Shown here in pieces: positions 1 to 45,048 of a stretch of DNA of 45,048 bases. This stretch comes from a virus, in IMG/VR virus record IMGVR_UViG_3300045988_083207; one strand, 5' to 3'. Positions within the stretch are counted from its first letter, which is position 1. Every line of letters starts with the position of its first letter. A model generated the notes under the pieces. That model was not told the origin of the DNA. It ran no database searches and saw only the letters and a list, made by a program, of their open reading frames with translations. A program made the translations under genes and the position numbers.

Positions 1-41
1 CGCTCGGCCTGTTCGGCGGCACGCAGGACGATAACGGTCAG
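1..41. repeat. Terminal direct repeat, copy 1 (identical to 45008..45048)
   Basis: 41/41 nt identical to the last 41 nt of the window. Confidence 0.95.
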
Positions 42-160: not shown

Positions 161-201
161 GGGCGTCCCGGATTATCCGGGACGCCTGTTTTTGTCGTTT
201 T
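161..201 (+). terminator. Rho-independent terminator after the SLH gene
   Basis: Stem ggcgtcccgg / ccgggacgcc with loop attat, followed by tgtttttgtcgttttt. Confidence 0.7.
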
Positions 202-290
202 TCTGCAAAAAAGCGGAAAAGCCCCTTGCGGCGGGGGCGCGTTTCCGGTATACTGGATACACCAACTTTTTGAAGAAAAGGAGAAATGGC

Positions 291-1718
291 ATGAAGAAGA
301 AACTTCTGAGCATCCTGCTCGTGCTGAGCCTGATGCTCGCGCTCGTCCCGGCGGCCTTCGCGGCGGACGCCGCCAGCGGCACCTGCGGCGCCGAGGGCGA
401 CGGCAGCAACGTCACCTGGACGCTGGACGAGTCCGGCACGCTGACCATCTCCGGCACCGGCGCGATGTGCGACTACGACGATGCCTGGAGCGGCAAGCCC
501 TGGGGAAGCAGCGACGCCGTTCAGGCCGTTGTCGTGCAGGAGGGCGTCACCCACATCGGCGCATACGCCTTCTTTCGCTACACGAATTGCAGGTCCGTCA
601 GTTTGCCGTCCTCGCTGGTCTCGATCGGTGAGAGCGCCTTCGCTATGAACGACGGTCTCCGGGAGCTCGATCTGCCGGAGGGCCTCCGGGAGCTGGGCAA
701 CATGGCGTTCCTGTCCTGCGACGCGCTCAAGCGGCTCACAGTTCCGAGCACGCTCGAGACGATCGGCGATAACACGTTCAACTCGTGCGAGGCGCTCAGC
801 GATGTGACGCTTTCCGAGGGCCTGACTACCGTCGGCAACCTTATGTTCTCCAATGCCAAACGGCTCAAGACCATCACGCTGCCGCAGAGCCTGACGACCA
901 TCGGCGTGGCCGCCTTCCAGTATACCGGGCTGCAGGAGCTGCACATCCCCGCAAGCGTCACGACGATCAATGCCAAGGCATTCCAGGGCGCGGCGCTCAC
1001 TTCGGTCGAGGTGCCCGGAACGGTCAAAACGCTCCTCGACGGCGCTTTTATGGGCTGCGATGACCTGCGCAGCTTCACACTGGGCGAGGGCTCCCGGAGC
1101 GTGCCGGGCGGTCTGCTGGCCCGCTGCCGCTCGCTCGAGCGCGTCACGCTGCCGCAGTCGCTCGAGACGATCGGTGATTCCGCATTTTATGAGTGCCCGC
1201 GTCTGGGCGAGATCAACATTCCGGACAGTGTGACTACCTTGGGCAACAGCTGCTTCAGCGGCACGAGCCTGCGCGAGCTTACGCTTCCGGCGGGCACGAC
1301 TACGATCGGCAACCGCGCGTTTGCCGAGATGCGCTATCTGCGCGAGCTGCACATCCCGGACACGGTCACGTCGCTTGGCATCGGCGTGTTTGCCGGCGAC
1401 AGCGCACTCACAACGGCCACGCTGCCGTCCGGCCTGACCGAGATCCCCCAGAGTACATTTTCCTTCTGCGAGAAGCTCACGTCCATTGAGATTCCCGACG
1501 GCGTTACGAGCATCGGCAAGGAGGCCTTTCAAAAATGCACGAGCCTGACGGCCGTCGACCTGCCGGATGCCGTCACGTCCATCGGCGATCGGGCATTTCT
1601 GAACTGCCAGTCGCTCACGGAGCTGCGGCTGCCCGCTGAGCTGGAGACACTCGGCGACCGTGCGCTTTGCGATGAAAAAGTCAAGGATAAATTACAAAAT
1701 ATCAAGAAAAATATTTGA
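291..1718 (+). CDS. BspA-like LRR surface protein, 5' portion. Host-encoded to 1672, then a 15-codon prophage-derived tail.
   Basis: RBS aaaaggaga 7 nt upstream of ATG 291. Signal peptide MKKKLLSILLVLSLMLALVPAAFA. About 22-residue LRR_5-type repeats (LxxVxIPxSVTxIGxxAFxxC). The repeat pattern breaks at LGDRALC, after which AT-rich DEKVKDKLQNIKKNI* follows. Confidence 0.85.
   Translation: MKKKLLSILLVLSLMLALVPAAFAADAASGTCGAEGDGSNVTWTLDESGTLTISGTGAMCDYDDAWSGKPWGSSDAVQAVVVQEGVTHIGAYAFFRYTNCRSVSLPSSLVSIGESAFAMNDGLRELDLPEGLRELGNMAFLSCDALKRLTVPSTLETIGDNTFNSCEALSDVTLSEGLTTVGNLMFSNAKRLKTITLPQSLTTIGVAAFQYTGLQELHIPASVTTINAKAFQGAALTSVEVPGTVKTLLDGAFMGCDDLRSFTLGEGSRSVPGGLLARCRSLERVTLPQSLETIGDSAFYECPRLGEINIPDSVTTLGNSCFSGTSLRELTLPAGTTTIGNRAFAEMRYLRELHIPDTVTSLGIGVFAGDSALTTATLPSGLTEIPQSTFSFCEKLTSIEIPDGVTSIGKEAFQKCTSLTAVDLPDAVTSIGDRAFLNCQSLTELRLPAELETLGDRALCDEKVKDKLQNIKKNI
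1658..1672. repeat. Left copy of the 15-bp junction direct repeat ccgtgcgctttgcga (attL core or target-site duplication)
   Basis: Identical 15-mer at 43893..43907. Flanks diverge sharply on both sides. Joining host flanks restores the LRR reading frame. Confidence 0.85.
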
Positions 1719-1850: not shown

Positions 1851-2885
1851 TCAGGCGGCCACGTACTCCTCGAAAACTGCCCCGGCGGATCTCCACCCCA
1901 GGATCCGGCGTGGATAGTTGTTCATCCACTCCGCCGCCCGTTCCACCTCCGCCTCCGTCACCTGATCGAAGTTTGTTCCCTTTGGGAACCACCGCCGCAG
2001 GATCCGGTTCATGTTCTCGTTGCTCCCGCGCTCTTGCGGGGAATACGGGTGGCAGTAGTAAATTTTCGTTCGTGGTCCTTTCAGCCTGTACGATCTCTGG
2101 AGGCCGGCGCAGTCCATAAATTCGCTGCCGTTGTCCACGGTGATGGTGCGGAACACTTCCCGGAACCGCTTTCCCATTCGCCGCTCCAGCCTGTTCAGCG
2201 CCCGGACCACGCTTTCCGCCGTATGATCCGGGACCCGGATCACCAGTCCCCACCTCGTCAGCCGTTCGGTCAGCACCAGCAGGGCCGCCTTTGACCCCAC
2301 CGGCCCCATAATGCTGTCCATTTCCCAGTGGCCGAACGTATTTCGCGCCCGGACCTCCGGCGGTCTGTCCTCGATGGTTTCCCCTGGCGCCTCTTTCGCC
2401 CGTTCCCGCTGTTCATATTCCCGCCGGCGCTCCCCTTTATAAAGCAGGTGTTCTTCTGTCAATTCCAGAAACACGTCCCCCCGGTAAATATACGAATAAA
2501 GGGTGGTTTCGCAGATGTGGGTTTCAAACTCCAGGCCGGCCGCCTCGATGTAGGCCAGCACCGCCCCGGGGGAATAGTGTTCTTCTATGATCTTTCGCTC
2601 CACGAAGTTGGCAAAAGCATGATCCCGGCCCAGTTTGATCTCCGGCCCCTTTGCTCTCAAATTCTCCTGGTATTTCCGCTCCGCCACTTCCGCGCAGTAT
2701 TCCTCCCGGAATATGTACCCCTCTTTTTGCTGGAGGCATAGGCCCCGTTTAATCTCGTTGTAAATTGTCTTGACGCATACCCCCAGCATTTCCGCGATCT
2801 CCGCAGGCTTTCCCCCGGTTTTCAGCGCCCCCTCGATTTTCAGGCGGTCCTCCCACTTTAGGTGGTGATACCCTTTGTAGTTCAT
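1851..2885 (-). CDS. IS30-family DDE transposase (candidate phage integrase)
   Basis: 344 aa. N-terminal HTH (KPAEIAEMLGVCVKTIYNEIKRG). DDE triad contexts GHWEMD, TVDNGSEF and SPQERGSNENMN. RBS aaggggga. Confidence 0.85.
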   Translation of the reverse strand: MNYKGYHHLKWEDRLKIEGALKTGGKPAEIAEMLGVCVKTIYNEIKRGLCLQQKEGYIFREEYCAEVAERKYQENLRAKGPEIKLGRDHAFANFVERKIIEEHYSPGAVLAYIEAAGLEFETHICETTLYSYIYRGDVFLELTEEHLLYKGERRREYEQRERAKEAPGETIEDRPPEVRARNTFGHWEMDSIMGPVGSKAALLVLTERLTRWGLVIRVPDHTAESVVRALNRLERRMGKRFREVFRTITVDNGSEFMDCAGLQRSYRLKGPRTKIYYCHPYSPQERGSNENMNRILRRWFPKGTNFDQVTEAEVERAAEWMNNYPRRILGWRSAGAVFEEYVAA

Positions 2886-6962: not shown

Positions 6963-7592
6963 TTACACCTCCGCCGCGTCGTCTGCGGCCTCCGTCCATC
7001 CGTACACGCCAGGCTCCCAAACATTGGCCGCCACGTCACTGATCCAGTGTTTCCCGTTGTGGCTGACCTTTGCCCCCTGTTCGTATGCGTCATGGGCGCC
7101 CAGTGGCTGGGACCATTCCGGCCACTCCTCCGCAGGGTCGGAAATGCTCACCCACAGGCTCACCGCCGCGTCCGGCGTCCAGTCCGCTTGCGACGTGTGC
7201 GCCTGCAGGCATTTATACAGTTTCCCGTCCGTGTAGCGCCGGATCTGCCCGGCTGCGTAGTTGACGGGATAGGCCCATGGTGAAAACAGGTCCGCGTGTT
7301 CCGCCGCTGTCACGTCGTCGATGTTTCCGGCCTCCGCCATGGTGGTGAACACGATCCCGTTGGCCGTTGCCGTTTTCTCGATCTCCTGGCCCGCGTCCAC
7401 TTCCTCCATGACCACGCTTTCCGCGCCCTCCACGGCATCTCTGCCCAGGATGTGGTACACGGCCCCGCCGTATGCGATCCCCGTCGCCTCCGCCTCCTGG
7501 CAAAGGACAAAGCACCCGTTTCCCGCTTGCCTCACATAGGTGGGTGCCTCGGTCATGCCCAGGCTTGTCCCGTCCTTGATGATCTTAAACAT
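6963..7592 (-). CDS. Carbohydrate-binding protein with two CBM5/12-like modules
   Basis: YAAGQIRRYTDGKLYKCLQAHTSQADWTPDAAVSLW and YEQGAKVSHNGKHWISDVAANVWEPG. ATG 7592 has a GGAGGTG RBS. Confidence 0.6.
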   Translation of the reverse strand: MFKIIKDGTSLGMTEAPTYVRQAGNGCFVLCQEAEATGIAYGGAVYHILGRDAVEGAESVVMEEVDAGQEIEKTATANGIVFTTMAEAGNIDDVTAAEHADLFSPWAYPVNYAAGQIRRYTDGKLYKCLQAHTSQADWTPDAAVSLWVSISDPAEEWPEWSQPLGAHDAYEQGAKVSHNGKHWISDVAANVWEPGVYGWTEAADDAAEV

Positions 7593-8715
7593 GGTCTGCA
7601 CCTCCATAAATTGCATGAAATAGCCGGTTCAGTTTCAGGACCCGGCCGTGGTCGTTGTAGTTCTCAAAATAGGCGATCTGGCTTGTCAGCCATTCCCGCA
7701 CCTGGGTGACAGTCATTTCCCCGGCGTCCACCTTTGCCCTGAACGCCCGCAGTTTCCGCCGCGCCCGTTTCATCCCGTCCCGGTTCCCATGGGTGATCAC
7801 CTTCCCGGTTTGTGTCAGGTGGAATTTTACCTTGCAGAACCGGAACGGCTTTGACAGCGGCACGATCTTGGTTTTTCTGCGGCTCACCGTCAGCCCCATG
7901 GCCTCCATTTTCTCCGTTACCGCGTCCCGGAACGCCTCCGCCTGTTCTTTCGTTTCCGCGATCATGTGGTAGTCGTCCATATAGTGGGCCGGTGCCTCCG
8001 CCCGCAGTTGGCAGGCCGCCCAGTTGTCCACGGCGGACGGCAGGGACACCATTTCCATCTGTGACGGCTCCACGCCCAGCGGCATACCTGCGCCGCCAGG
8101 AACGGAGGCCACCACCATGTCCGCCACCGCCCGGATCTCATTGTCCAGGATCAGGCGCCGGTGGCGTTCGTAGATCTCCGCATGGGGCGCGGATGGAAAG
8201 AACTGCTTTAGGTCCATAAGGACCACGTACCCCTCCTGGCCATGTTTCCGGTAATGGTCCCGCAGGATCTTTTTCAGTTCCTCATGGTGGAAGTGCAGGC
8301 CCTTTCCTCGTTGGCTGGCTCCGTTTCGGTATATCATCCCCGGGGTGTATAGCGGCTCCAGCACTTCCTTGGTCAGGGTTTTGTGGATCTGTCTGTCGTT
8401 GATGTGCGGGGCGTCTATTGGCCGGATCTTTCCTCGCTCCCGGAGGAGGAAGTGGGCGCCCGGTTTCGGCCGCCATGTCCCGGAAATGACTTCCCGCCGC
8501 CGGCGGGCCGTCCCGGAAAACAGGTGCCGTTCAAAGTTCTGCGTGGACTGTTTCCACCTCACATTGTTGCAGCACTTCTTTCCCCATTTGAACATTTTCC
8601 GAAAACTGAACGCCTGGTCTATCCCGCCCAGGGCGTCGTTTCGGATCCGCCGCCGCTCCTCTCGGGCGGCTTTTCGTCTATGGTATCGCGCCTCGCGGCG
8701 CTCCTCACTGGTCAT
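7585..8715 (-). CDS. DGR reverse transcriptase
   Basis: 376 aa from ATG 8715. Motifs VVLMDLKQFFPS, GMPLGVEPSQ (the SQ typical of DGR RTs), HYMDDYHMI, SRRKTKIV. Lies next to the TR. Confidence 0.85.
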   Translation of the reverse strand: MTSEERREARYHRRKAAREERRRIRNDALGGIDQAFSFRKMFKWGKKCCNNVRWKQSTQNFERHLFSGTARRRREVISGTWRPKPGAHFLLRERGKIRPIDAPHINDRQIHKTLTKEVLEPLYTPGMIYRNGASQRGKGLHFHHEELKKILRDHYRKHGQEGYVVLMDLKQFFPSAPHAEIYERHRRLILDNEIRAVADMVVASVPGGAGMPLGVEPSQMEMVSLPSAVDNWAACQLRAEAPAHYMDDYHMIAETKEQAEAFRDAVTEKMEAMGLTVSRRKTKIVPLSKPFRFCKVKFHLTQTGKVITHGNRDGMKRARRKLRAFRAKVDAGEMTVTQVREWLTSQIAYFENYNDHGRVLKLNRLFHAIYGGADHV

Positions 8716-8941
8716 ATATTTTATTCGCGCCTCCGTGCGGTTTTGGTGTAGGTGTGCGGCTAAACCGCGTAGCCCCGGCACATGAAACGGGGTTAGCACA
8801 ATAGACCCGCCATGCAAGCAGCGTCCGTGCAAGGGCCACAAAGTGCGGTTTCGGGTTTTGCCCGGGAAGTATCTCTCCTTTCACAATGGGTCCGGTTCGT
8901 TTCCTACTGCATTTGACCCGCTCCCCCTTGCGGAGGTTGTG

Positions 8942-9067
8942 AAATCCGGGGGCCACGGCCCAGGAATTGTTCGCGTTGTTGTTGTTGGCGCTGCCGTTGG
9001 TGTTGACAAGGCAGAAATTGTTGGTGTTCGTCGCATTGACGGACCGGCACCACGCATTGGCCGCCGT
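8942..9067 (-). repeat. DGR template repeat (TR)
   Basis: 126 nt collinear, without indels, with 9678..9803 and 39518..39643. Its coding-sense strand is rich in AAC/AAT codons (NATNTNNFCLVNTNGSANNNNANNS). Confidence 0.85.
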
Positions 9068-9128
9068 CAAAGGGTCCGCCGCCCTGCCACTCGGCACGTT
9101 TTCAGAGATACACCCAATGGCCAGTGAT

Positions 9129-9587
9129 TTATTTTCTTTTTCGGTCGCTCTCCAGAACGGCCCGGATCAGTTCGTTTTCCCTGTCGATCTTTTCGGCCAG
9201 GTTTTGCGCCATATCATCCAGTTTTTTGGTGGCCTCCGCCGCCGGTATGCTTTTCCCGTCCGGCTTTGTAAAGCACCCCTGCGGGTTCAATGCCAGGATG
9301 GTATAACAATGCCCCAGGCGCACGTCCAGGGCCATGAGCGCGGCCCTGGCCTCCAGCAGGTGCCCTTTCCGCAGGCCCATGTTCGGCTCTCCCTTTGGAA
9401 AAATACTGTTCGCCTTTTCCGTCTGATCGATCACTTCCCCGGCCAGCGCGGCCACCGGCTCCGCCAGCAGGCGGGCATACCTTGCGGAAAGCCTGGTCAG
9501 AAATGCCACGGTTTCCACGTAGATCTCATTGGCCAGGTTTACGTACTCCGCCTTGCTGGTTGATCTCTTGCTTTTCAGTACGGACAC
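9129..9587 (-). CDS. avd: Avd-like accessory variability determinant (helical bundle)
   Basis: 152 aa, predicted helical. GTG start with AAAGGAGGGG RBS. Canonical position between the target gene and the TR. Confidence 0.55.
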   Translation of the reverse strand: MSVLKSKRSTSKAEYVNLANEIYVETVAFLTRLSARYARLLAEPVAALAGEVIDQTEKANSIFPKGEPNMGLRKGHLLEARAALMALDVRLGHCYTILALNPQGCFTKPDGKSIPAAEATKKLDDMAQNLAEKIDRENELIRAVLESDRKRK

Positions 9588-9622
9588 GGCCGCCCCTCCT
9601 TTCGGTTCTTTCTCGGTCGGAT

Positions 9623-9644
9623 CCCGCCCACTTCCGTGGGCGGG
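9623..9644 (-). other. Hairpin downstream of VR1 (9-bp GC stem, GGAA loop on the coding strand)
   Basis: Plus strand reads cccgcccac ttcc gtgggcggg. Lies about 25 nt after the fibre stop codon. Confidence 0.7.
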
Positions 9645-9668
9645 ATTTTCTCCGATTGCTCCGCCGGA

Positions 9669-12191
9669 TTAGGCGGCAAAGCCGGGGGCCACGGCCCAGG
9701 AAACGTCCGCGCCGCTGCTGCCGGCGCCGCCGTCGGTGTAGACACGGCAGAAAATGCCGGTGTACGCCGCACGGACGGACCGGCACCACGCATAGGCCGC
9801 CGTGCCGGTGGCGTCGTGCTTGTAATGCACCTTGCTGTTGCCCGCCTGGTAATAGGCGTACTGCTGCTGGTAGTTCTGTTCCGCGCTGTTGGCATAGGAC
9901 CGGGCGCCCTGCACCTCGAACTCCGAAAGCAAAGGCAGGTAGTCCGTGGTGCTGGTCACATAACTGGCCGTATTGCTCCCGCCGCCGGTGTTGTCGCTGT
10001 ACTTGGTGATCGGTTTCATTACAGCGCGGAGATCCGCCGGCAGGGCCGCCAGCAGGGTGTTTGCCCTCGGGCTGGTTGGGGTCGTGTCGGAACCCAGGAC
10101 CGTGGTTCTCATGTGGCTGCCAGCCCACCCGCCGCTGTTGGTGTTGCTGGTGTTCATGGTAAACTTTCCGCTTGTGCTGGTGGAACTCCCGTAACTGCTA
10201 TCGCAGAGGCCCACCTGGGTGCCGCCGATCTTCCCGATCTTGAAGTGGATCCGGTTGGAACCCTCCCGGCTGGCGTTGTGGTTGAACCCCAAAATAAAAA
10301 CATTGATTGACAGGTTGGAGAACGAAGTGGCGCCCACGGTCCCGTTGATGGTGATGGTCTTGGTGTCGCCCACGTCCCAGTAGTTGTCCCCCTGGCCCGC
10401 GTCGGAAACCGCCTTGATGGTGGCCCACGAATTGCTGTTTAAGGTGCTTGAGATCACGGTCACGGTGATGGCCTGGGTGGTCGTCTTGGTCACTCCGCCC
10501 TCCGAATAGGAAACGGTGATGGCCGTGGTCCCCTGCGAAAGGGCGCCGGTGGGGGAGTAGGTGTACCCGGTTACTGCCGCGCTGCTCCCGTCGTTATAGT
10601 GCGCCGTCACCACCATGCCCGCCGTGCTGAAAGTTTCCCCGGAGAAATAGGAGGTCCTGCTGGGCGGTGTGGTGATCTCAATGCTGGTCAGCACCTTGGA
10701 AACAGTGATGGCCTGGGTGGCCGTCTTGGTCACTCCGCCCTCCGAATAGGAAACGGTGATCGTGGTGCTGCTCATGTTCAGGGTGCCGGTGGGGGAGTAG
10801 GTGTACCCGGTCACGGCGCGGCTTGCGTCGTCCGTATAGTACGCCGTCACCACCATGCCCGCCGGGTTGAAGGTTTCCCCGTACTTGTACGCCGTCTTTG
10901 TGGGCGGCGTCGTTACCGCGATATGGTCCAGGACCCGCACGGCCACCGCCACCGTGGTGGTCTTTGTGATCCCCGCCCGGCTGTATGTCACAGTGACAGA
11001 CTGGGTTCCCTGTGCCATGACCTGGGGGGAAAATGTGCAGTCGTCCGTCACGTTTTCGGTGGTGTCGTCCTCAAAAGTCGCTGTCACCACCATGCCCGCC
11101 GGGCTGAAGTTCTCTCCGATGAAATAGGTGGTTTTTGTCGGCTGCGTGGTCACGGCGATCCCGCTCGTGATCATCAGGTCCACCTCATACAGCAGGCCGC
11201 CGCCCACCTCAACCTCCTGGGACACGCTTTCGCCGTTCAGGCTTGCCGTCACGGTCCAGGCGCCCACGTGCGGCAGTTCAAACTCCGTGGAACCCGTACC
11301 TTGCAGGGTGGTTTCTCCGCCGTCAGAACAGGTCACGGACGCGCCCGCACAGGTTGTCACGGAAATGGTGGGGCTTTGCACCCCGATGGCCTCTTTCAGC
11401 GCCTGCAGGGTTGCTCTCCGGTGCTGTCCCGTGGATACGTCATAGAAGGGAATAAAGTCCTGCGTGTTCATGCTGCTTTCCTGCGTCAGGGCGTTGGTGG
11501 GCGCCTGGTAGTCCGTGCCCGCCGTTGCCTTTTCCACGCTGTACTTGTCGCCCTCCTCGGTGGTTGTCTTTTTCCCTTTCAGCAGGCCCTCCACTTTGAT
11601 CTGGTCCTGTTTATTTGCCAGGGCGCCGCCGTGGGCGTCCGGGTCCTCGTTGTGGTCGTCGATCAGATCCTGCAGGCTCTCCTCCAGTTCCGGCTTGATC
11701 GTGTTGTTGAAATATTCCGCCACGTCCTCGGCGGTCATCCACGCCTCCGCAGGATACGCCACGTCAACCTGGGTTCCGGTCGTCACCGTGATGGATACCG
11801 GATACCGGCGCACGTCCGGCGCCGTGCCCGCTACGTATGCGCTCACGTACTGCTTGGCGTTGCCCAGGGAACCATACCCGATCAGGGTTTCCTCTCCGTT
11901 CCCCACCTTTCCGAAAATGCCAAATTCTCCGATCCAGAACCCTTCCTGCAGTCCTCCGTTCAGGTCGGATCTGTATTCCACGATCATGTTGACGTTGTTC
12001 CCGTCCACCGTGGGCGCGGTGCTTGTCGCCTCCGGCCCCGGTGCGATCAGGTCCGTTAATTCCCGCGCCGCGTCCGGGTTGTCTGCAGTTCCTTCACCCA
12101 CCACAGCCTTTGTGATGGTCAGGGTCTGCCCGGCCACCATGCTGGCCAGGAGCGCGTTTCCGCTCTCCGTGATTACAAATCCATAGAACAC
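9669..12191 (-). CDS. Tail fibre / DGR target 1: tail-collar N-terminus, three Ig-like repeats, C-terminal lectin-type variable domain
   Basis: 840 aa. N-terminus MFYGFVITESGNALLASMVAGQTLTITKAVVGEG is P2 H-like. Three roughly 80-aa repeats. C-terminus is AYAWCRSVRAAYTGIFCRVYTDGGAGSSGADVSWAVAPGFAA*. Confidence 0.85.
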   Translation of the reverse strand: MFYGFVITESGNALLASMVAGQTLTITKAVVGEGTADNPDAARELTDLIAPGPEATSTAPTVDGNNVNMIVEYRSDLNGGLQEGFWIGEFGIFGKVGNGEETLIGYGSLGNAKQYVSAYVAGTAPDVRRYPVSITVTTGTQVDVAYPAEAWMTAEDVAEYFNNTIKPELEESLQDLIDDHNEDPDAHGGALANKQDQIKVEGLLKGKKTTTEEGDKYSVEKATAGTDYQAPTNALTQESSMNTQDFIPFYDVSTGQHRRATLQALKEAIGVQSPTISVTTCAGASVTCSDGGETTLQGTGSTEFELPHVGAWTVTASLNGESVSQEVEVGGGLLYEVDLMITSGIAVTTQPTKTTYFIGENFSPAGMVVTATFEDDTTENVTDDCTFSPQVMAQGTQSVTVTYSRAGITKTTTVAVAVRVLDHIAVTTPPTKTAYKYGETFNPAGMVVTAYYTDDASRAVTGYTYSPTGTLNMSSTTITVSYSEGGVTKTATQAITVSKVLTSIEITTPPSRTSYFSGETFSTAGMVVTAHYNDGSSAAVTGYTYSPTGALSQGTTAITVSYSEGGVTKTTTQAITVTVISSTLNSNSWATIKAVSDAGQGDNYWDVGDTKTITINGTVGATSFSNLSINVFILGFNHNASREGSNRIHFKIGKIGGTQVGLCDSSYGSSTSTSGKFTMNTSNTNSGGWAGSHMRTTVLGSDTTPTSPRANTLLAALPADLRAVMKPITKYSDNTGGGSNTASYVTSTTDYLPLLSEFEVQGARSYANSAEQNYQQQYAYYQAGNSKVHYKHDATGTAAYAWCRSVRAAYTGIFCRVYTDGGAGSSGADVSWAVAPGFAA
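9678..9803 (-). repeat. DGR variable repeat 1 (VR1)
   Basis: Differs from the TR at 20 positions that are all adenines on the TR coding strand, plus one non-adenine site (9745). A flanking IMH-like stretch from 9665 is shared with VR2 but not with the TR. Confidence 0.85.
10463..11180 (-). repeat. Tandem repeat of about 240 bp, three copies, encoding Ig-like domains
   Basis: 10466..10520 versus 10706..10760 is nearly identical (period 240). The third copy is diverged. Confidence 0.8.
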
Positions 12192-32111: not shown

Positions 32112-32482
32112 CTGCAGCACCCCCTTTTCATGTGCCGCCGGCTCTTTTTCCCGCTCCGCCCAGCGCCGCCCTACGTCTTGGCCCGCGTCGGAACGTAGGC
32201 TTTCGGGCGGCGCAGGCGGTTGGCTTTGCCGGTTTCGTTTTCCGCTTTGTGGTGGATTTCGCTTTTTTGACCTCGTTTCCTCTGGTTTTTTTCTTCCCTC
32301 ACCCCCTAAAGGGGGTGCGTTCCTCCTGATTGCTCCAGCCGCCGTTCCAATGCGTAACGTAACGGCCCATTTTTCAGGGATTTTCTTGGAGAAAAATGCC
32401 GGGCCTTCCGCGCCCCGCACGGTCGCCAGCCCCCGGAAGGACCCAAACAGGTGGGCGCCTCTCGCCTTTTGATAGGGGGAGG

Positions 32483-39469: not shown

Positions 39470-39489
39470 CCCGCCGCTTTCGCGGCCGG
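39470..39489 (-). other. Hairpin downstream of VR2 (GAAA loop on the coding strand)
   Basis: Plus strand reads ccc gccgc tttc gcggc cgg. Lies about 20 nt after the stop of target 2. Confidence 0.55.
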
Positions 39490-39508: not shown

Positions 39509-39808
39509 TTAGATGTCAAAGCCGGGGGCCACGGCCCAGGAATAGCTCGCGTTGCTGTCGCTGGCGCTGCCGTCGGTGTAGACACGGCAGAAATGGTAGG
39601 TGTCCGTCGCATAGACGGACCGGCACCACGCACAGGCCGCCGCGTTCATAATCGCCGCCAGGTTTGATATGTGCGGCACTACGACGGATCCGTGGTCCGG
39701 GTGCGTGACCCTTGATTTCCCCGGGACGTTCCACCGATGGAACCGCGCCCGCTCCTCTGCGCTGCGTCTTGCCTGGTTCGGTCCGTCGGTGAAGTTAAAC
39801 GGCCTCAA
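39509..39808 (-). CDS. DGR target 2: small ORF ending in a lectin-type variable region
   Basis: Ends AACAWCRSVYATDTYHFCRVYTDGSASDSNASYSWAVAPGFDI*. The likely TTG start overlaps the upstream stop (TTGA). ATG 39886 is an alternative start. Confidence 0.55.
   Translation of the reverse strand: MRPFNFTDGPNQARRSAEERARFHRWNVPGKSRVTHPDHGSVVVPHISNLAAIMNAAACAWCRSVYATDTYHFCRVYTDGSASDSNASYSWAVAPGFDI
39518..39643 (-). repeat. DGR variable repeat 2 (VR2)
   Basis: Collinear with the TR. 14 differences at TR-adenine sites, plus the same single non-adenine site (39585) seen in VR1. An IMH-like flank from 39505 is shared with VR1. Confidence 0.8.
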
Positions 39809-43907: not shown

Positions 43908-45048
43908 CTGCATGGGCCTAACCTCGCTCACTGTCCCGGACGGTGTGCGCGAGCTGCCGGACTTGGTGTTCAGCGGCTGCGTGAGTCTCACCTCCCTCAC
44001 ACTGCCCGCCGGCCTGACTTCGATCGGCAGGGGCGCGTTTTGTTCCTGCAGATCGCTGACGGAGGTCACGATCCCCGACAGCGTGCAGTTCATCGGCGAG
44101 ACGGCGTTTGCCGATATGCCGTGTCTGCAGACCATCCATGTCGGCGCGGACAACAGCGCCTACAAGACGGTGGACGGTGTGCTTCTGACAAAGGCGGGCG
44201 ATGTGCTGCTCGCCTATCCCACGACGCGCCCCGGCATCCGCTACGATGTGCCGGACGGTGTCACCCGCATCGGCGAGCTGGCTTTTTATGGCAGCGGCCT
44301 GATGATCGTCCGCTTCCCGCAGAGCCTGCGCACGGTCGGCGACGAAGCGTTTGAAGACAGCACGCTTCTCGTCGCGCTCGAGTTTCCTGCCGGTACGGAG
44401 GAGATCGGCTGGGATGCTTTTGAAAACGACAGCAATATCAGCGATGTGTTCTTTGGCGGCACAGAGAATGCGTGGTATCAGCTCGTCAAGCATGAGGCAT
44501 ATAAGTTCCCGCTCGAGACGCAGATCCATTATCAGTCGCGCATGTTCATCCCGGAGCCGGCCGACCTGTTCACGGATGTGGACGCGGACAACTGGGCGTA
44601 CATCAGCATCGATTTTTGTGTGCTGGTGGGCCTCATGTCCGGCATGAGCGAGACGACCTTCTCGCCCAACACGGTGACGACGCGCGCGCAGCTCGTGCAG
44701 GTGCTGTATAATTTCGTGGGTCAGCCGGATGTGACCGGCGTGACCACGCCGTTTACGGACACCCCGGCCGACTGGTATCAGGCTGCGATCGCCTGGGCGT
44801 ATGAGACCGGCGTCGTGGACGGCACGTCGCCCACCACGTTTGCGCCCAACGAGAGCGTGACGCGCGAGCAGATTGCCGTCCTCCTCACGCGTTTTCTGAC
44901 CAACGTCTGCGGCGTGGAGCGCACGTGGACGCCGGATGATCTGTCCGGCTTTGCCGACGGCGTCAGCGTCTCCGGCTGGGCGCGCGCCGGCATGGCCGAC
45001 GCCGTGGCGCTCGGCCTGTTCGGCGGCACGCAGGACGATAACGGTCAG
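43908..45048 (+). pseudogene. 3' portion of the disrupted LRR-SLH surface protein gene (runs off the window end)
   Basis: Frame is open from 43885. CMGLTSLTVPDGVRELPDLVFSGCVSLTSLTLPAGLTSIGRGAF... are LRR units, followed by SLH-like repeats (FTDVDADNWAYISIDFCVLVGLMSG; FTDTPADWYQAAIAWAYETGVVDG; FADGVSVSGWARAGMADAVALGLFGG). No RBS or signal peptide of its own. Confidence 0.8.
45008..45048. repeat. Terminal direct repeat, copy 2
   Basis: Identical to 1..41. Confidence 0.95.

Follow-up and report, generated by a model that had tools for sequence, protein, structure and literature searches.

Phages of gut Oscillospiraceae and Faecalibacterium are known to be rich in diversity-generating retroelements (DGRs). 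The prototype of these elements, that of Bordetella phage BPP-1, has the order mtd-avd-TR-brt, with a template repeat (TR) from which sequence is transferred to a variable repeat (VR) in the target gene. The Faecalibacterium phages FP_Taranis, Pioen and Roos (Taranisvirus; PMC5883640, PMC11792537) carry the same order of target, 459-nt accessory gene, TR, RT-2 RNA and reverse transcriptase (RT) as the element considered here; read-level activity has been shown for the DGRs of Roos and Pioen (PMC5883640, PMC11792537), and the Taranis RefSeq record includes a gene annotated as "DGR target". In the two-target phage DGRs of Lelie and CP11 (PMC11792537) and of nd4 and nd12 (PMC10743442), one TR goes with two DUF6273 proteins, of which the large one is structural and the small one stands alone.

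The window, that is, the whole 45,048-nt stretch of DNA that was analysed, is the circular genome (the contig ends overlap by 41 nt) of a 45-kb myovirus-type phage of the human gut, and a related prophage is carried by an Oscillospiraceae MAG. The best explanation of the whole is a complete, active DGR in this 45-kb gut phage whose second target was lost by deletion, most economically through one aberrant homing event; we put the probability of this overall reading at about 0.93. The minus strand carries, in order, the tail fibre, a 152-aa accessory gene, the TR, a structured spacer RNA and the RT:

9669..12191, minus strand: target gene 1, the tail fibre, 840 aa, GTG start
9678..9803, minus strand: VR1, final 42 codons of the tail-fibre gene
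9129..9587, minus strand: accessory gene, 152 aa, pI 9.1, predicted four-helix bundle
8942..9067, minus strand: TR, 126 nt, 32 adenines
9009, minus strand: TR position 59 (T59), a T that is G at VR1 9745 and VR2 39585; recurrent non-adenine change
8707..8921, minus strand: structured spacer RNA, Rfam RF03077 "RT-2 RNA", full length, 139 bits against a gathering score of 40
7585..8715, minus strand: DGR RT, 376 aa, ATG at 8715, stop at 7585
8059..8079, minus strand: RT motif LGVEPSQ, in the RT ORF
7972..7983, minus strand: RT motif YMDD, in the RT ORF

All of these ORFs lie where the first-pass annotation had placed them, and its target-avd-TR-RT order holds in the positional sense, the accessory gene having no Avd sequence match. 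Its confinement of the element to 7585..12191 has to be given up, because a second VR, 30 kb away, is also served.

TR and VR1 were recovered in a repeat search as a gap-free 126-nt pair with 83% identity, in keeping with the alignment without indels described before. When the 22 mismatches were tabulated by TR base, the predicted adenine specificity was found: 21 are at adenines of the TR and the remaining one is at T59 (hypergeometric p = 6e-15, with 32 A in the 126 bases of the TR). The adenine changes comprise 14 A>G, 5 A>T and 2 A>C, and the T>G change at TR position 59 turns CTT (Leu) into CGT (Arg). AAC or AAT in the TR underlies 12 of the variable codons of VR1, which bears out the emphasis placed earlier on these codons, and ACG and AGC vary too. 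The earlier count of 20 internal adenine differences and one exception was essentially right; the total rises to 22 with an additional adenine mismatch, A123>C (GGATTT to GGCTTT), in the 3' end element. Since all TRs of the family have A at position 123 and all VRs have C, this mismatch is regarded as a directional difference between TR and VR and not as a product of mutagenesis.

The 3' end of VR1 and its flank contain two further features:

9682..9697, minus strand: GC-rich 16-nt element GGGCCGTGGCCCCCGG at the VR1 3' end, identical in the TR (8946..8961) and in VR2 (39522..39537)
9622..9645, minus strand: VR1 hairpin, GC-rich stem of 10 bp closed by a GGAA loop of the GRNA type, lying 32 nt downstream of VR1

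After the GC-rich element, position 123 is C in the VRs against A in the TR, and VR and TR then diverge; the flanks of VR1 and VR2 have GGCTTTGnCnnCTAATCCG in common, whereas the TR is without it. Judged by sequence, the 16-nt element, position 123 and the diverging flank match the IMH/IMH* arrangement. The VR1 hairpin (DNA fold z = -4.6) is kept in Dulem virus 34 with a GAAA loop and fits the DGR target hairpin consensus of PMC3240598; its interpretation as a plain terminator is unlikely, as no T run follows and the loop obeys the GRNA rule. The hairpins of both VRs, the IMH-type block and the 3'-end location of the VRs thus appear to agree with the target criteria of PMC3240598.

The RT is encoded by an intact ORF of 376 aa in which both motifs reported on the first pass, YMDD and the LGxxPSQ type, are present (Pfam RVT_1, 1e-15; phrog_1423, 2e-71). 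BLASTP against Brt gave 24% identity over 305 aa (E 4e-17), with LGVEPSQ/IGSLTSQ and YMDD aligned. The best solved relative in a PDB sequence search is the BPP-1 DGR RT, bRT (8ub7, E 3e-11), ahead of the group II intron RTs (E 5e-5 for GsI-IIC RT, then 3e-4), so that the protein does not appear to be nearer to group II intron or retron RTs; with [LIV]GxxxSQ in motif 4 and YxDD, it would be classed as an RT of the DGR type. The RT-2 RNA occupies exactly the stretch between TR and RT, both in this genome and in six related ones, namely Taranis, Dulem virus 34 and four from metagenomes. The family Phage_DGR (RF03022), which matches the spacer of BPP-1, gave no match in this spacer, where RF03077 is found instead; the RT-2 RNA may be considered a DGR spacer RNA by position, not by family, with a presumed role in priming.

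The accessory protein matches phrog_30516 (unknown function, 2e-69) and belongs to a family of more than 1,100 members with no Pfam entry. Its AlphaFold model (pLDDT 89) consists of four long helices; Foldseek gave 2gsc as the best PDB match (TM 0.82 on target, E 0.02), and in BFVD ranks 2–5 and 10 are "Avd-like" phage proteins (E 0.016–0.2), with bAvd itself (4dwl) outside the best 50 fold matches. Fold E-values as weak as these (0.02–0.2) are usual for helical bundles. By sequence, no Avd match was found with Pfam PF22296 or PF05635, even at E = 10, or in NCBIfam, and alignment to bAvd by hhalign had a probability below 1%. The family profile found no match among PDB sequences, its best 150 matches in 1.8 billion proteins all belonged to the same family, and Pfam searches at E = 10 on 27 and on 38 members gave no link to Avd. 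The earlier designation "Avd-like gene" is therefore kept for position, size, charge and predicted four-helix-bundle fold, and not for sequence similarity (PF22296, PF05635 and hhalign below 1%); the protein may be analogous to Avd in function or only very distantly homologous to it.

In the tail fibre, a tail-fibre domain at the N terminus and a DUF6273-type domain at the C terminus, which carries VR1, are accompanied by three Ig-like repeats of the Big_3 family; a P2 gpI-like baseplate gene lies upstream. In Pfam, Big_3 is matched at 8e-20, and Phage_tail_fib and DUF6273 weakly; in PHROG, the matches are tail fiber (2e-43) and phrog_37900 (3e-118). The AlphaFold model of the C-terminal domain is of low confidence (pLDDT 37), and neither a profile search against the PDB nor hhalign to Mtd gave a match for this domain; the lectin-fold scaffold proposed for it is taken from the DUF6273 literature (PMC10743442).

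The second VR was missed by the first-pass annotation and lies in an unusual setting:

39518..39643, minus strand: VR2, second variable repeat, 30.5 kb from the TR
39470..39489, minus strand: VR2 hairpin, GCCGC-GAAA-GCGGC with three further pairs outside and a GRNA loop, lying 28 nt downstream of VR2
39509..39808, minus strand: chimeric ORF, 99 aa, 57 codons of a conserved 89-aa ORF fused in frame to VR2
39624..39636, minus strand: 13-nt filler CCTGTGCGTGGTG at the deletion join, equal to TR positions 8–20 (CCAATGCGTGGTG) with both adenines changed (AA to TG)

VR2 differs from the TR at 16 sites, 15 of them adenines and the other the same T59>G. VR1 and VR2 differ from each other at 20 sites, all at TR-adenine positions; their shared ancestry in this genome was considered and rejected, as five of nine co-substituted sites are shared against about four expected by chance. 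The VR2 hairpin is kept downstream of the VR2 of the Dulem virus and is weaker than the VR1 hairpin (z = -0.6, whole 86 nt). In nine close relatives, an intact, free-standing DUF6273 protein of 221 aa, encoded among the replication genes, ends with VR2. Compared with these intact relatives, 2,356 bp are absent here, with flanks identical at 478/478 positions on the left and at 99.4–99.7% on the right. The chimeric ORF begins as the conserved 89-aa ORF, which is next after the lytic transglycosylase gene, lacks the DUF6273 scaffold that the second target, of 221 aa, normally has, and appears in the ENA gene call as 99 aa. No other full-length match to it was found among 5.8 billion proteins, and the join was found in this one genome only, with no other occurrence in viral contigs, species-representative genomes or the same 5.8 billion proteins. 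To judge from these alignments, the second target is destroyed by the 2,356-bp deletion, and the orphan VR2 keeps all target-site signals.

The filler occurs in neither parental sequence at the VR2 locus. The left parent ends with CGGCGG, equal to TR positions 2–7 (6-nt microhomology). At the place of the filler, the nine intact same-species relatives, as well as more distant ones, read GGCACCACGCCCTGGTCCCT, against the TR-like CGGCGGCCTGTGCGTGGTG of the window. Because the VR2 of intact relatives matches the TR from position 21 only, a full-length cDNA would have a 20-nt non-homologous end at VR2.

Heterogeneity was measured between samples, on assembled contigs. In ten other samples of the same phage, the TR is identical (126/126); VR1 differs at 14–22 of its 126 sites in nine of them and equals that of the window in the tenth, and the 2,333 nt flanking VR1 show 0 differences in seven of the ten. 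Across samples, 28 of the 29 variable positions of VR1 and 26 of the 27 of VR2 are TR adenines. The variation expected to be confined to TR-adenine positions is therefore found between samples in extreme form, at all but one variable site per VR. Near-identical genomes with an invariant TR contain eight distinct VR1 and eight distinct VR2 sequences, and the surroundings of VR2 have at least 99.4% identity among the genomes with eight distinct VR2s. From this between-sample comparison the DGR is apparently active in the phage, with diversification that would be ongoing and restricted to the VRs. Mismatch bases, RT affinity and heterogeneity, all named beforehand as observations by which the annotation of a DGR might fail, came out against refutation, heterogeneity in the comparison between samples.

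The one recurrent non-adenine change concerns T59 (context GCCUUGUC), which reads G in about half of the VRs (four of eight distinct VR1s and five of eight distinct VR2s). Within a single genome, its occurrences in VR1 and VR2 are independent, and the functionless VR2 stub has it too. At other non-adenine sites, no change was seen in approximately 1,400 site-observations, and the TR is invariant. Its origin as a recent TR mutation was rejected, since T is present in every TR (more than 20, three clades) and VR1 and VR2 of single genomes differ there; G59 as an old state retained by descent was rejected too, as VRs with G59 have unrelated upstream adenine-site patterns. The independent occurrence in VR1 and VR2, the invariant TR, the lack of change at any other non-adenine site and the presence in the stub may point to a context-dependent RT error, for example, a two-base UGU slip re-using G61, rather than selection alone.

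One alternative for the whole locus is a fossil element, in which diverged paralogous repeats lie beside an RT that is no longer active or is unrelated (from a group II intron, a retron or a defence system) and the adenine bias records past activity only. The top NCBIfam match of the RT is indeed a group II intron RT/maturase model, although its 72 bits stay far under the cut-off of 300; Drt and retron models are matched weakly as well, and the comparison is between samples only. However, the RT ORF is intact, with YMDD and a DGR-type LGxxxSQ and with bRT as its best solved relative; an Rfam scan of the whole window at gathering thresholds found no group II intron or retron RNA, its matches being DUF3800-VIII and RT-2 only, the latter in the DGR spacer position; and eight distinct VR1s and eight distinct VR2s beside an invariant TR in near-identical genomes already contradict a relic, which we consider extremely improbable.

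The deletion at VR2 leaves more room for debate. Because the join carries 13 TR-copied nucleotides with both adenines changed, it suggests, as the most economical reading, a mis-integrated cDNA from one aberrant homing event. A full-length, adenine-mutagenised cDNA would have started at VR2 and joined at its far end not to the VR2 5' boundary but to the cryptic upstream 6-nt microhomology 2.36 kb away, with the result that four genes' worth of DNA would be deleted and an orphan VR left. Cryptic 5' integration at short identities has been shown experimentally for BPP-1 (PMC3240598), although the 6 nt available here are fewer than the 8 or more reported sufficient for BPP-1, which counts against this origin. 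An ordinary microhomology-mediated (slipped-strand or illegitimate) deletion, or gene conversion from VR1, could instead have produced the stub without DGR cDNA. In the relative L072, 8-nt direct repeats (CGCGGCGG) bound an unrelated deletion of approximately 1 kb that has no filler and lies at exactly this left site, so that the left breakpoint is deletion-prone by itself; 15 copies of CGGCGG are present in 3 kb here, the region being GC-rich; and VR1 reads CCTATGCGTGGTG at the place of the filler, a single base off, which makes VR1 DNA a conceivable donor. A two-parent event, however, cannot make the 13-nt filler, because intact relatives have GGCACCACGCCCTGGTCCCT there, and a plain repeat-mediated deletion would need an intact parent with CGGCGGCCNNTGCGTGGTG upstream of position 21, where all nine have GGCACCACGCCCTGGTCCCT. 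VR1 as a donor would require both a separate conversion and an illegitimate join, and the two differences of the filler from the TR are both at adenines; an origin without DGR cDNA is thus rated as unlikely, if well short of negligible. That the join is an assembly artefact caused by three 126-nt repeats is very improbable: the window is a metagenomic contig (ENA ERZ1310128 NODE_451), and repeats confuse assemblers, but the two sides share only 6 nt, far under any assembly k-mer, the filler is an exact match to neither the TR nor the VR1 of this genome, and the contig is indexed in two samples and closes on itself with the 41-nt overlap. Taken jointly, a natural footprint of mis-placed cDNA integration and a site-specific non-adenine change at T59 are proposed tentatively, at somewhat less than even odds. 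If mis-placed cDNA integration did occur, collateral deletions and gene fusions are among the effects that a DGR can have on the genome that carries it.

By analogy with the BPP-1 paradigm, the RT and the basic four-helix-bundle accessory protein would bind the RNA of the TR and RT-2 spacer, which would be reverse-transcribed with misincorporation at template adenines. To go by the sequences, the cDNA then replaces VRs marked by the TR-identical GC-rich end element, the VR-specific flank and the downstream GC hairpin with a GRNA loop. In the cross-sample comparison, such replacement is seen to recur in nature, both in the tail fibre, at its C-terminal DUF6273 domain (VR1), and in the 221-aa DUF6273 protein of the relatives (VR2), and the purpose may be to vary receptor- or ligand-binding specificity.

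The DGR itself is ordinary, a further example of a described gut-phage type for which the DGRs of relatives are published; the value of the data set lies in one invariant TR set against 16 distinct natural VRs in otherwise identical genomes. This variant class ties the uncharacterised Rfam RT-2 RNA and the 152-aa four-helix family to the DGR spacer and Avd roles. The candidate DGR-caused deletion would be a natural example of self-damage through cryptic 5' cDNA integration, and, as this case shows, an assembled circular phage genome can lack both the small second target and an adjacent methyltransferase. T59 is a reproducible non-adenine hotspot that is open to high-throughput DGR assays.

Compared with BPP-1, the gene order, the adenine-specific TR-to-VR transfer, the GC-rich IMH-type element, the GRNA-loop hairpin after the VR, IGxxxSQ and YMDD (24% identity) and a structured TR-RT RNA are alike. 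Unlike BPP-1, the accessory protein is outside the bAvd family PF22296, Rfam RT-2 (222 nt) takes the place of Phage_DGR RF03022 (127 nt) as the spacer RNA, the target has a DUF6273 domain in which no Mtd fold is detected by sequence, and one TR goes with two VRs. The cassette has approximately 66% nucleotide identity with that of Taranisvirus, and both have a DUF6273-type target, an RT-2 spacer and no Avd recognisable by sequence. In contrast, the present phage has a genome of 45 kb, is a myovirus with a P2-like baseplate and comes nearest to Dulem virus 34 and MT835543 (71–75% identity); its target is fused to a tail fibre with three Big_3 repeats, and it has a second, remote VR. Taranis, for its part, has an extra Arc-like gene between target and accessory gene. 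In the DGR literature searched, neither an orphaned VR of this kind nor a deletion join with TR-templated filler is described. The two-target arrangement of Lelie, CP11, nd4 and nd12 is that of the intact relatives of this phage, whereas here the small target is reduced to its VR and fused to an unrelated 57-codon N-terminus.

The three open reading frames that the first-pass annotation had placed on the minus strand were all recovered as claimed, in the following arrangement with the template repeat (TR) and the variable repeat of the tail fibre (VR1):

12191..9669, minus strand, tail-fibre gene (840 aa), ending in VR1 (9803..9678)
9587..9129, minus strand, accessory gene (152 aa)
9067..8942, minus strand, TR (126 nt)
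8715..7585, minus strand, reverse transcriptase (RT) ORF (376 aa), ATG at 8715 and end at 7585

A repeat search of the window returned TR 8942-9067 and VR1 9678-9803 as a gap-free 126-nt pair, which bore out the indel-free alignment. When the 22 mismatches were tabulated by TR base, 21 fell on TR adenines and one on T59; adenines make up 32 of the 126 nt of the TR (hypergeometric p = 6e-15 for their excess among the mismatches). Because the A123>C mismatch within the 3' end element is a fixed difference, with A in every TR and C in every VR, the earlier count of 20 internal differences plus one exception was accurate, as was the statement that the changes lie mostly in AAC/AAT codons (12 of the codons changed in VR1 read AAC or AAT in the TR). 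The observation itself was confirmed, and its interpretation as a diversity-generating retroelement (DGR) is supported with three corrections. The cassette does lie at 7585-12191, but the element reaches further, to a second variable repeat, VR2, at 39643..39518; the accessory protein is Avd-like in a narrower sense than had been proposed; and the lectin fold of the target is putative.

[quoted passage not shown] Of all solved structures, bRT (8ub7, E 3e-11) matched it best and group II intron RTs came behind (GsI-IIC, 5e-5; a maturase, 3e-4), and its scores against the NCBIfam group II, retron and defence RT models were all far under the cut-offs. Directly downstream, overlapping the RT stop, a 217-aa protein with two CBM_5_12 carbohydrate-binding modules (1.5e-12) is encoded at 6963..7616 (minus strand). 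The next product is a conserved 134-aa protein to which no function is assigned (phrog_29409), and Dulem virus 34 carries ORFs of like size in both positions.

The 152-aa accessory protein is not Avd by sequence and is Avd-like in predicted fold only. It had no match in Pfam (where bAvd is PF22296) or NCBIfam, relaxed-threshold scans of 27 and 38 members of its family gave no Avd match, the family profile found nothing among all PDB sequences, and hhalign detected nothing between the family and bAvd. Cornuault et al. likewise reported no Avd in phage Taranis (PMC5883640). Many proteins belong to the family, one search giving 1,168 clusters and a second 553 representatives at 50% identity, and a precomputed Pfam domain was present in three of the 120 clusters listed, all three longer and probably fused products. 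The AlphaFold model (pLDDT 89) consists of four long helices; its best solved match was 2gsc (TM 0.82 on target, E 0.02), with 2rld lower, and among predicted viral structures its best named matches were five phage proteins labelled "Avd-like" or "bAvd-like" (E 0.016-0.2). The protein is basic, with a pI of 9.1 against 9.55 for bAvd. It very probably performs the role of Avd.

The target is of tail-fibre type at its N-terminus, has three Big_3 repeats and carries a DUF6273-type domain at its C-terminus; a P2 gpI-like baseplate gene precedes its gene. The Big_3 domains are encoded by three tandem repeats of ~240 nt, 72-77% identical (10462..11150, minus strand); the tail fibre of one relative, L066, has 760 aa against 840 aa, which suggests that the number of repeats varies. 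The AlphaFold model of the C-terminal domain was too poor to use (pLDDT 37), and no sequence or profile link was found to Mtd, the BPP-1 target, or to solved structures. Its putative C-type-lectin fold rests on the report that DUF6273 domains of DGR targets are C-lec-like with a stabilising disulfide (PMC10743442), which the two cysteines of the AWC...FC motif would fit.

The 226 nt that separate the TR from the RT are occupied by a full-length Rfam RF03077 "RT-2 RNA" (139 bits; gathering score 40), which was also found in the corresponding gap of FP_Taranis, Dulem virus 34 and four metagenomic relatives, whereas the BPP-1 gap matches RF03022 "Phage_DGR". Of the RT motifs, Weinberg et al. assigned RT-10 alone to a DGR, with the conjecture that others were DGR-linked as well (PMC5737381); RT-2 is evidently one of those that belong to DGRs. 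Another motif of the same 2017 study, DUF3800-VIII RNA (RF03075), of unknown function, maps to 32155..32220 (minus strand; 44.6 bits, gathering score 40.2), within the phage's early or replication region.

The target-site signals were also recovered. A 16-nt GC block, GGGCCGTGGCCCCCGG, is identical in TR, VR1 and VR2, and the flank that follows it, GGCTTTGnCnnCTAATCCG, is common to both VRs and absent from the TR. GC-rich hairpins with four-base GRNA loops stand 32 nt 3' of VR1 (GGAA) and 28 nt 3' of VR2 (GAAA), and both are kept in Dulem virus 34. This architecture of GC block, VR-specific flank and hairpin is the one established experimentally for BPP-1 (PMC3240598). In two related loci, L007 and L039, the GC block differs at TR position 118, reading GGCCGCCGG instead of GGCCCCCGG; the VR of L007 retains CCCCC and that of L039 has likewise turned GCC, so base changes within the "IMH" GC block can pass to the VR.

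Contigs with the exact 152-aa protein occur in many samples, and ten were fetched for TR/VR comparison. The TR was identical to that of the window in all ten (126/126), and the 2,333 nt around VR1 showed zero differences in seven; in nine, VR1 itself departed from that of the window at 14-22 of its 126 positions, and the window's exact VR1 recurred in one. Variable positions coincided with TR adenines at 28 of 29 sites across eight distinct VR1s and at 26 of 27 across eight distinct VR2s. This between-sample comparison points to ongoing mutagenic homing as strongly as non-experimental evidence gets.

Position 59 (window 9009) is the sole varying non-adenine position. It is T in every TR examined (more than 20, across three clades) and G in both window VRs (9745 in VR1, 39585 in VR2); G59 was present in 4 of 8 distinct VR1s and 5 of 8 distinct VR2s of the window phage (window and loci L050-L069) and was found in more distant clades too. 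In three genomes with TR, VR1 and VR2 known, the TR has T and the two VRs differ from each other at this position; the change occurs independently in VR1 and VR2 of one genome. The change is always T>G, converting Leu CTT to Arg CGT in FC[L/R]V. Since the DNA flanking the VRs is essentially without point mutations, ordinary mutation cannot supply T59>G, and on these comparisons it must be either a product of DGR action or the outcome of very strong selection on rare RT errors. The occurrence of G59 in the functionless VR2 stub mildly favours an RT-level cause. The corresponding codon reads AAT in L041, a related DGR, which makes a place on the binding surface probable for its residue. In the slippage model for bRT, a template base already copied is re-used (PMC12875486); adapting it, one may speculate that a two-base slip on U60-G61-U62 produces T59>G. 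A specialist might wish to follow up this hotspot.

VR2 differs from the TR at 15 adenines and T59 and from VR1 at 20 positions, all TR adenines. In Dulem virus 34, and in nine near-identical genomes assembled from other samples, an intact 221-aa DUF6273 protein ends in VR2, and the genes of the intact locus are ordered as follows:

1, lytic transglycosylase
2, 89-aa ORF
3, 192-aa ORF
4, 130-aa ORF
5, N6/N4 methyltransferase
6, 221-aa target
7, 77-aa ORF
8, Rep

Relative to these genomes 2,356 bp are absent from the window, which has instead:

39808..39509, minus strand, chimeric 99-aa ORF directly after the transglycosylase gene, made of codons 1-57 of the 89-aa ORF and, in frame with them, VR2

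The left flank of the deletion is identical to the intact relatives over 478/478 nt, to window base 39637, and the right flank, running downwards from base 39623, shows 99.4-99.7% identity. The 13 nt between them, CCTGTGCGTGGTG, come from neither parent and correspond to TR positions 8-20 (CCAATGCGTGGTG) with both adenines altered. The left parent terminates in CGGCGG, equal to TR positions 2-7, and in every intact relative the match of VR2 to the TR starts only at position 21, preceded by GGCACCACGCCCTGGTCCCT. If VR2 primed a cDNA that copied the entire TR, its final 20 nt would have had no partner at VR2, and its end would have joined the 6-nt microhomology 2.36 kb upstream instead. One such aberrant cDNA homing event would explain the filler, the microhomology and the deletion together. 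Cryptic 5' integration is known from BPP-1, where short identity of 8 bp or more suffices (PMC3240598), whereas the microhomology at this join is 6 nt.

The filler could also have been donated by VR1 DNA, from which it differs by one base. The left site is also fragile by itself: in the relative L072 (Logan ERR6618678, positions 830..890), an independent, plain in-frame deletion of ~1 kb starts at this very point of the 89-aa ORF, which makes the site a deletion hotspot; the L072 deletion lies between 8-nt direct repeats, CGCGGCGG, and has no filler. No other genome with the chimeric join was found among viral contigs, species-representative genomes and 5.8 billion proteins. An assembly artefact is unlikely, given that the two sides of the join share just 6 nt and that the contig is indexed in two samples. 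The TR-templated filler at this 2.36-kb deletion is a further point that a specialist might follow up.

The window closes on itself (nt 1..41 equal 45008..45048 exactly), giving a circular genome of 45,007 unique bp, and a comparison of 6,234 nt with ENA ERZ1310128 NODE_451_length_45027 gave 100% identity. Its products include terminase, portal, capsid, tape measure and baseplate proteins. A 344-aa protein at 1851..2885 (minus strand) combines HTH_38 with an rve integrase core, an architecture typical of IS30-family transposases, and could be the phage integration enzyme or an inserted IS element. Close to where the contig closes, the strand opposite to that of nearly all other genes encodes a 508-aa BspA-type leucine-rich-repeat protein (192..1718, plus strand; LRR_5, 1e-114); it is possibly cargo or a "moron", and its ORF may run on over the circular junction.

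The records closest to the window are those of Dulem virus 34 and MT835543 (71-75% identity), followed by the Faecalibacterium phages Taranis, Pioen and Roos (~66% across the cassette), and an Oscillospiraceae MAG contains a TR whose 3' part is identical over 42 nt. In the Taranis RefSeq record the DUF6273 protein is already annotated as "DGR target". Reads have demonstrated that the DGRs of Roos and Pioen are active, and phages Lelie and CP11 pair a large with a small DUF6273 protein, as do the intact relatives of the window phage (PMC11792537). With relatives carrying known DGRs, the window element is a further member of an already described lineage.
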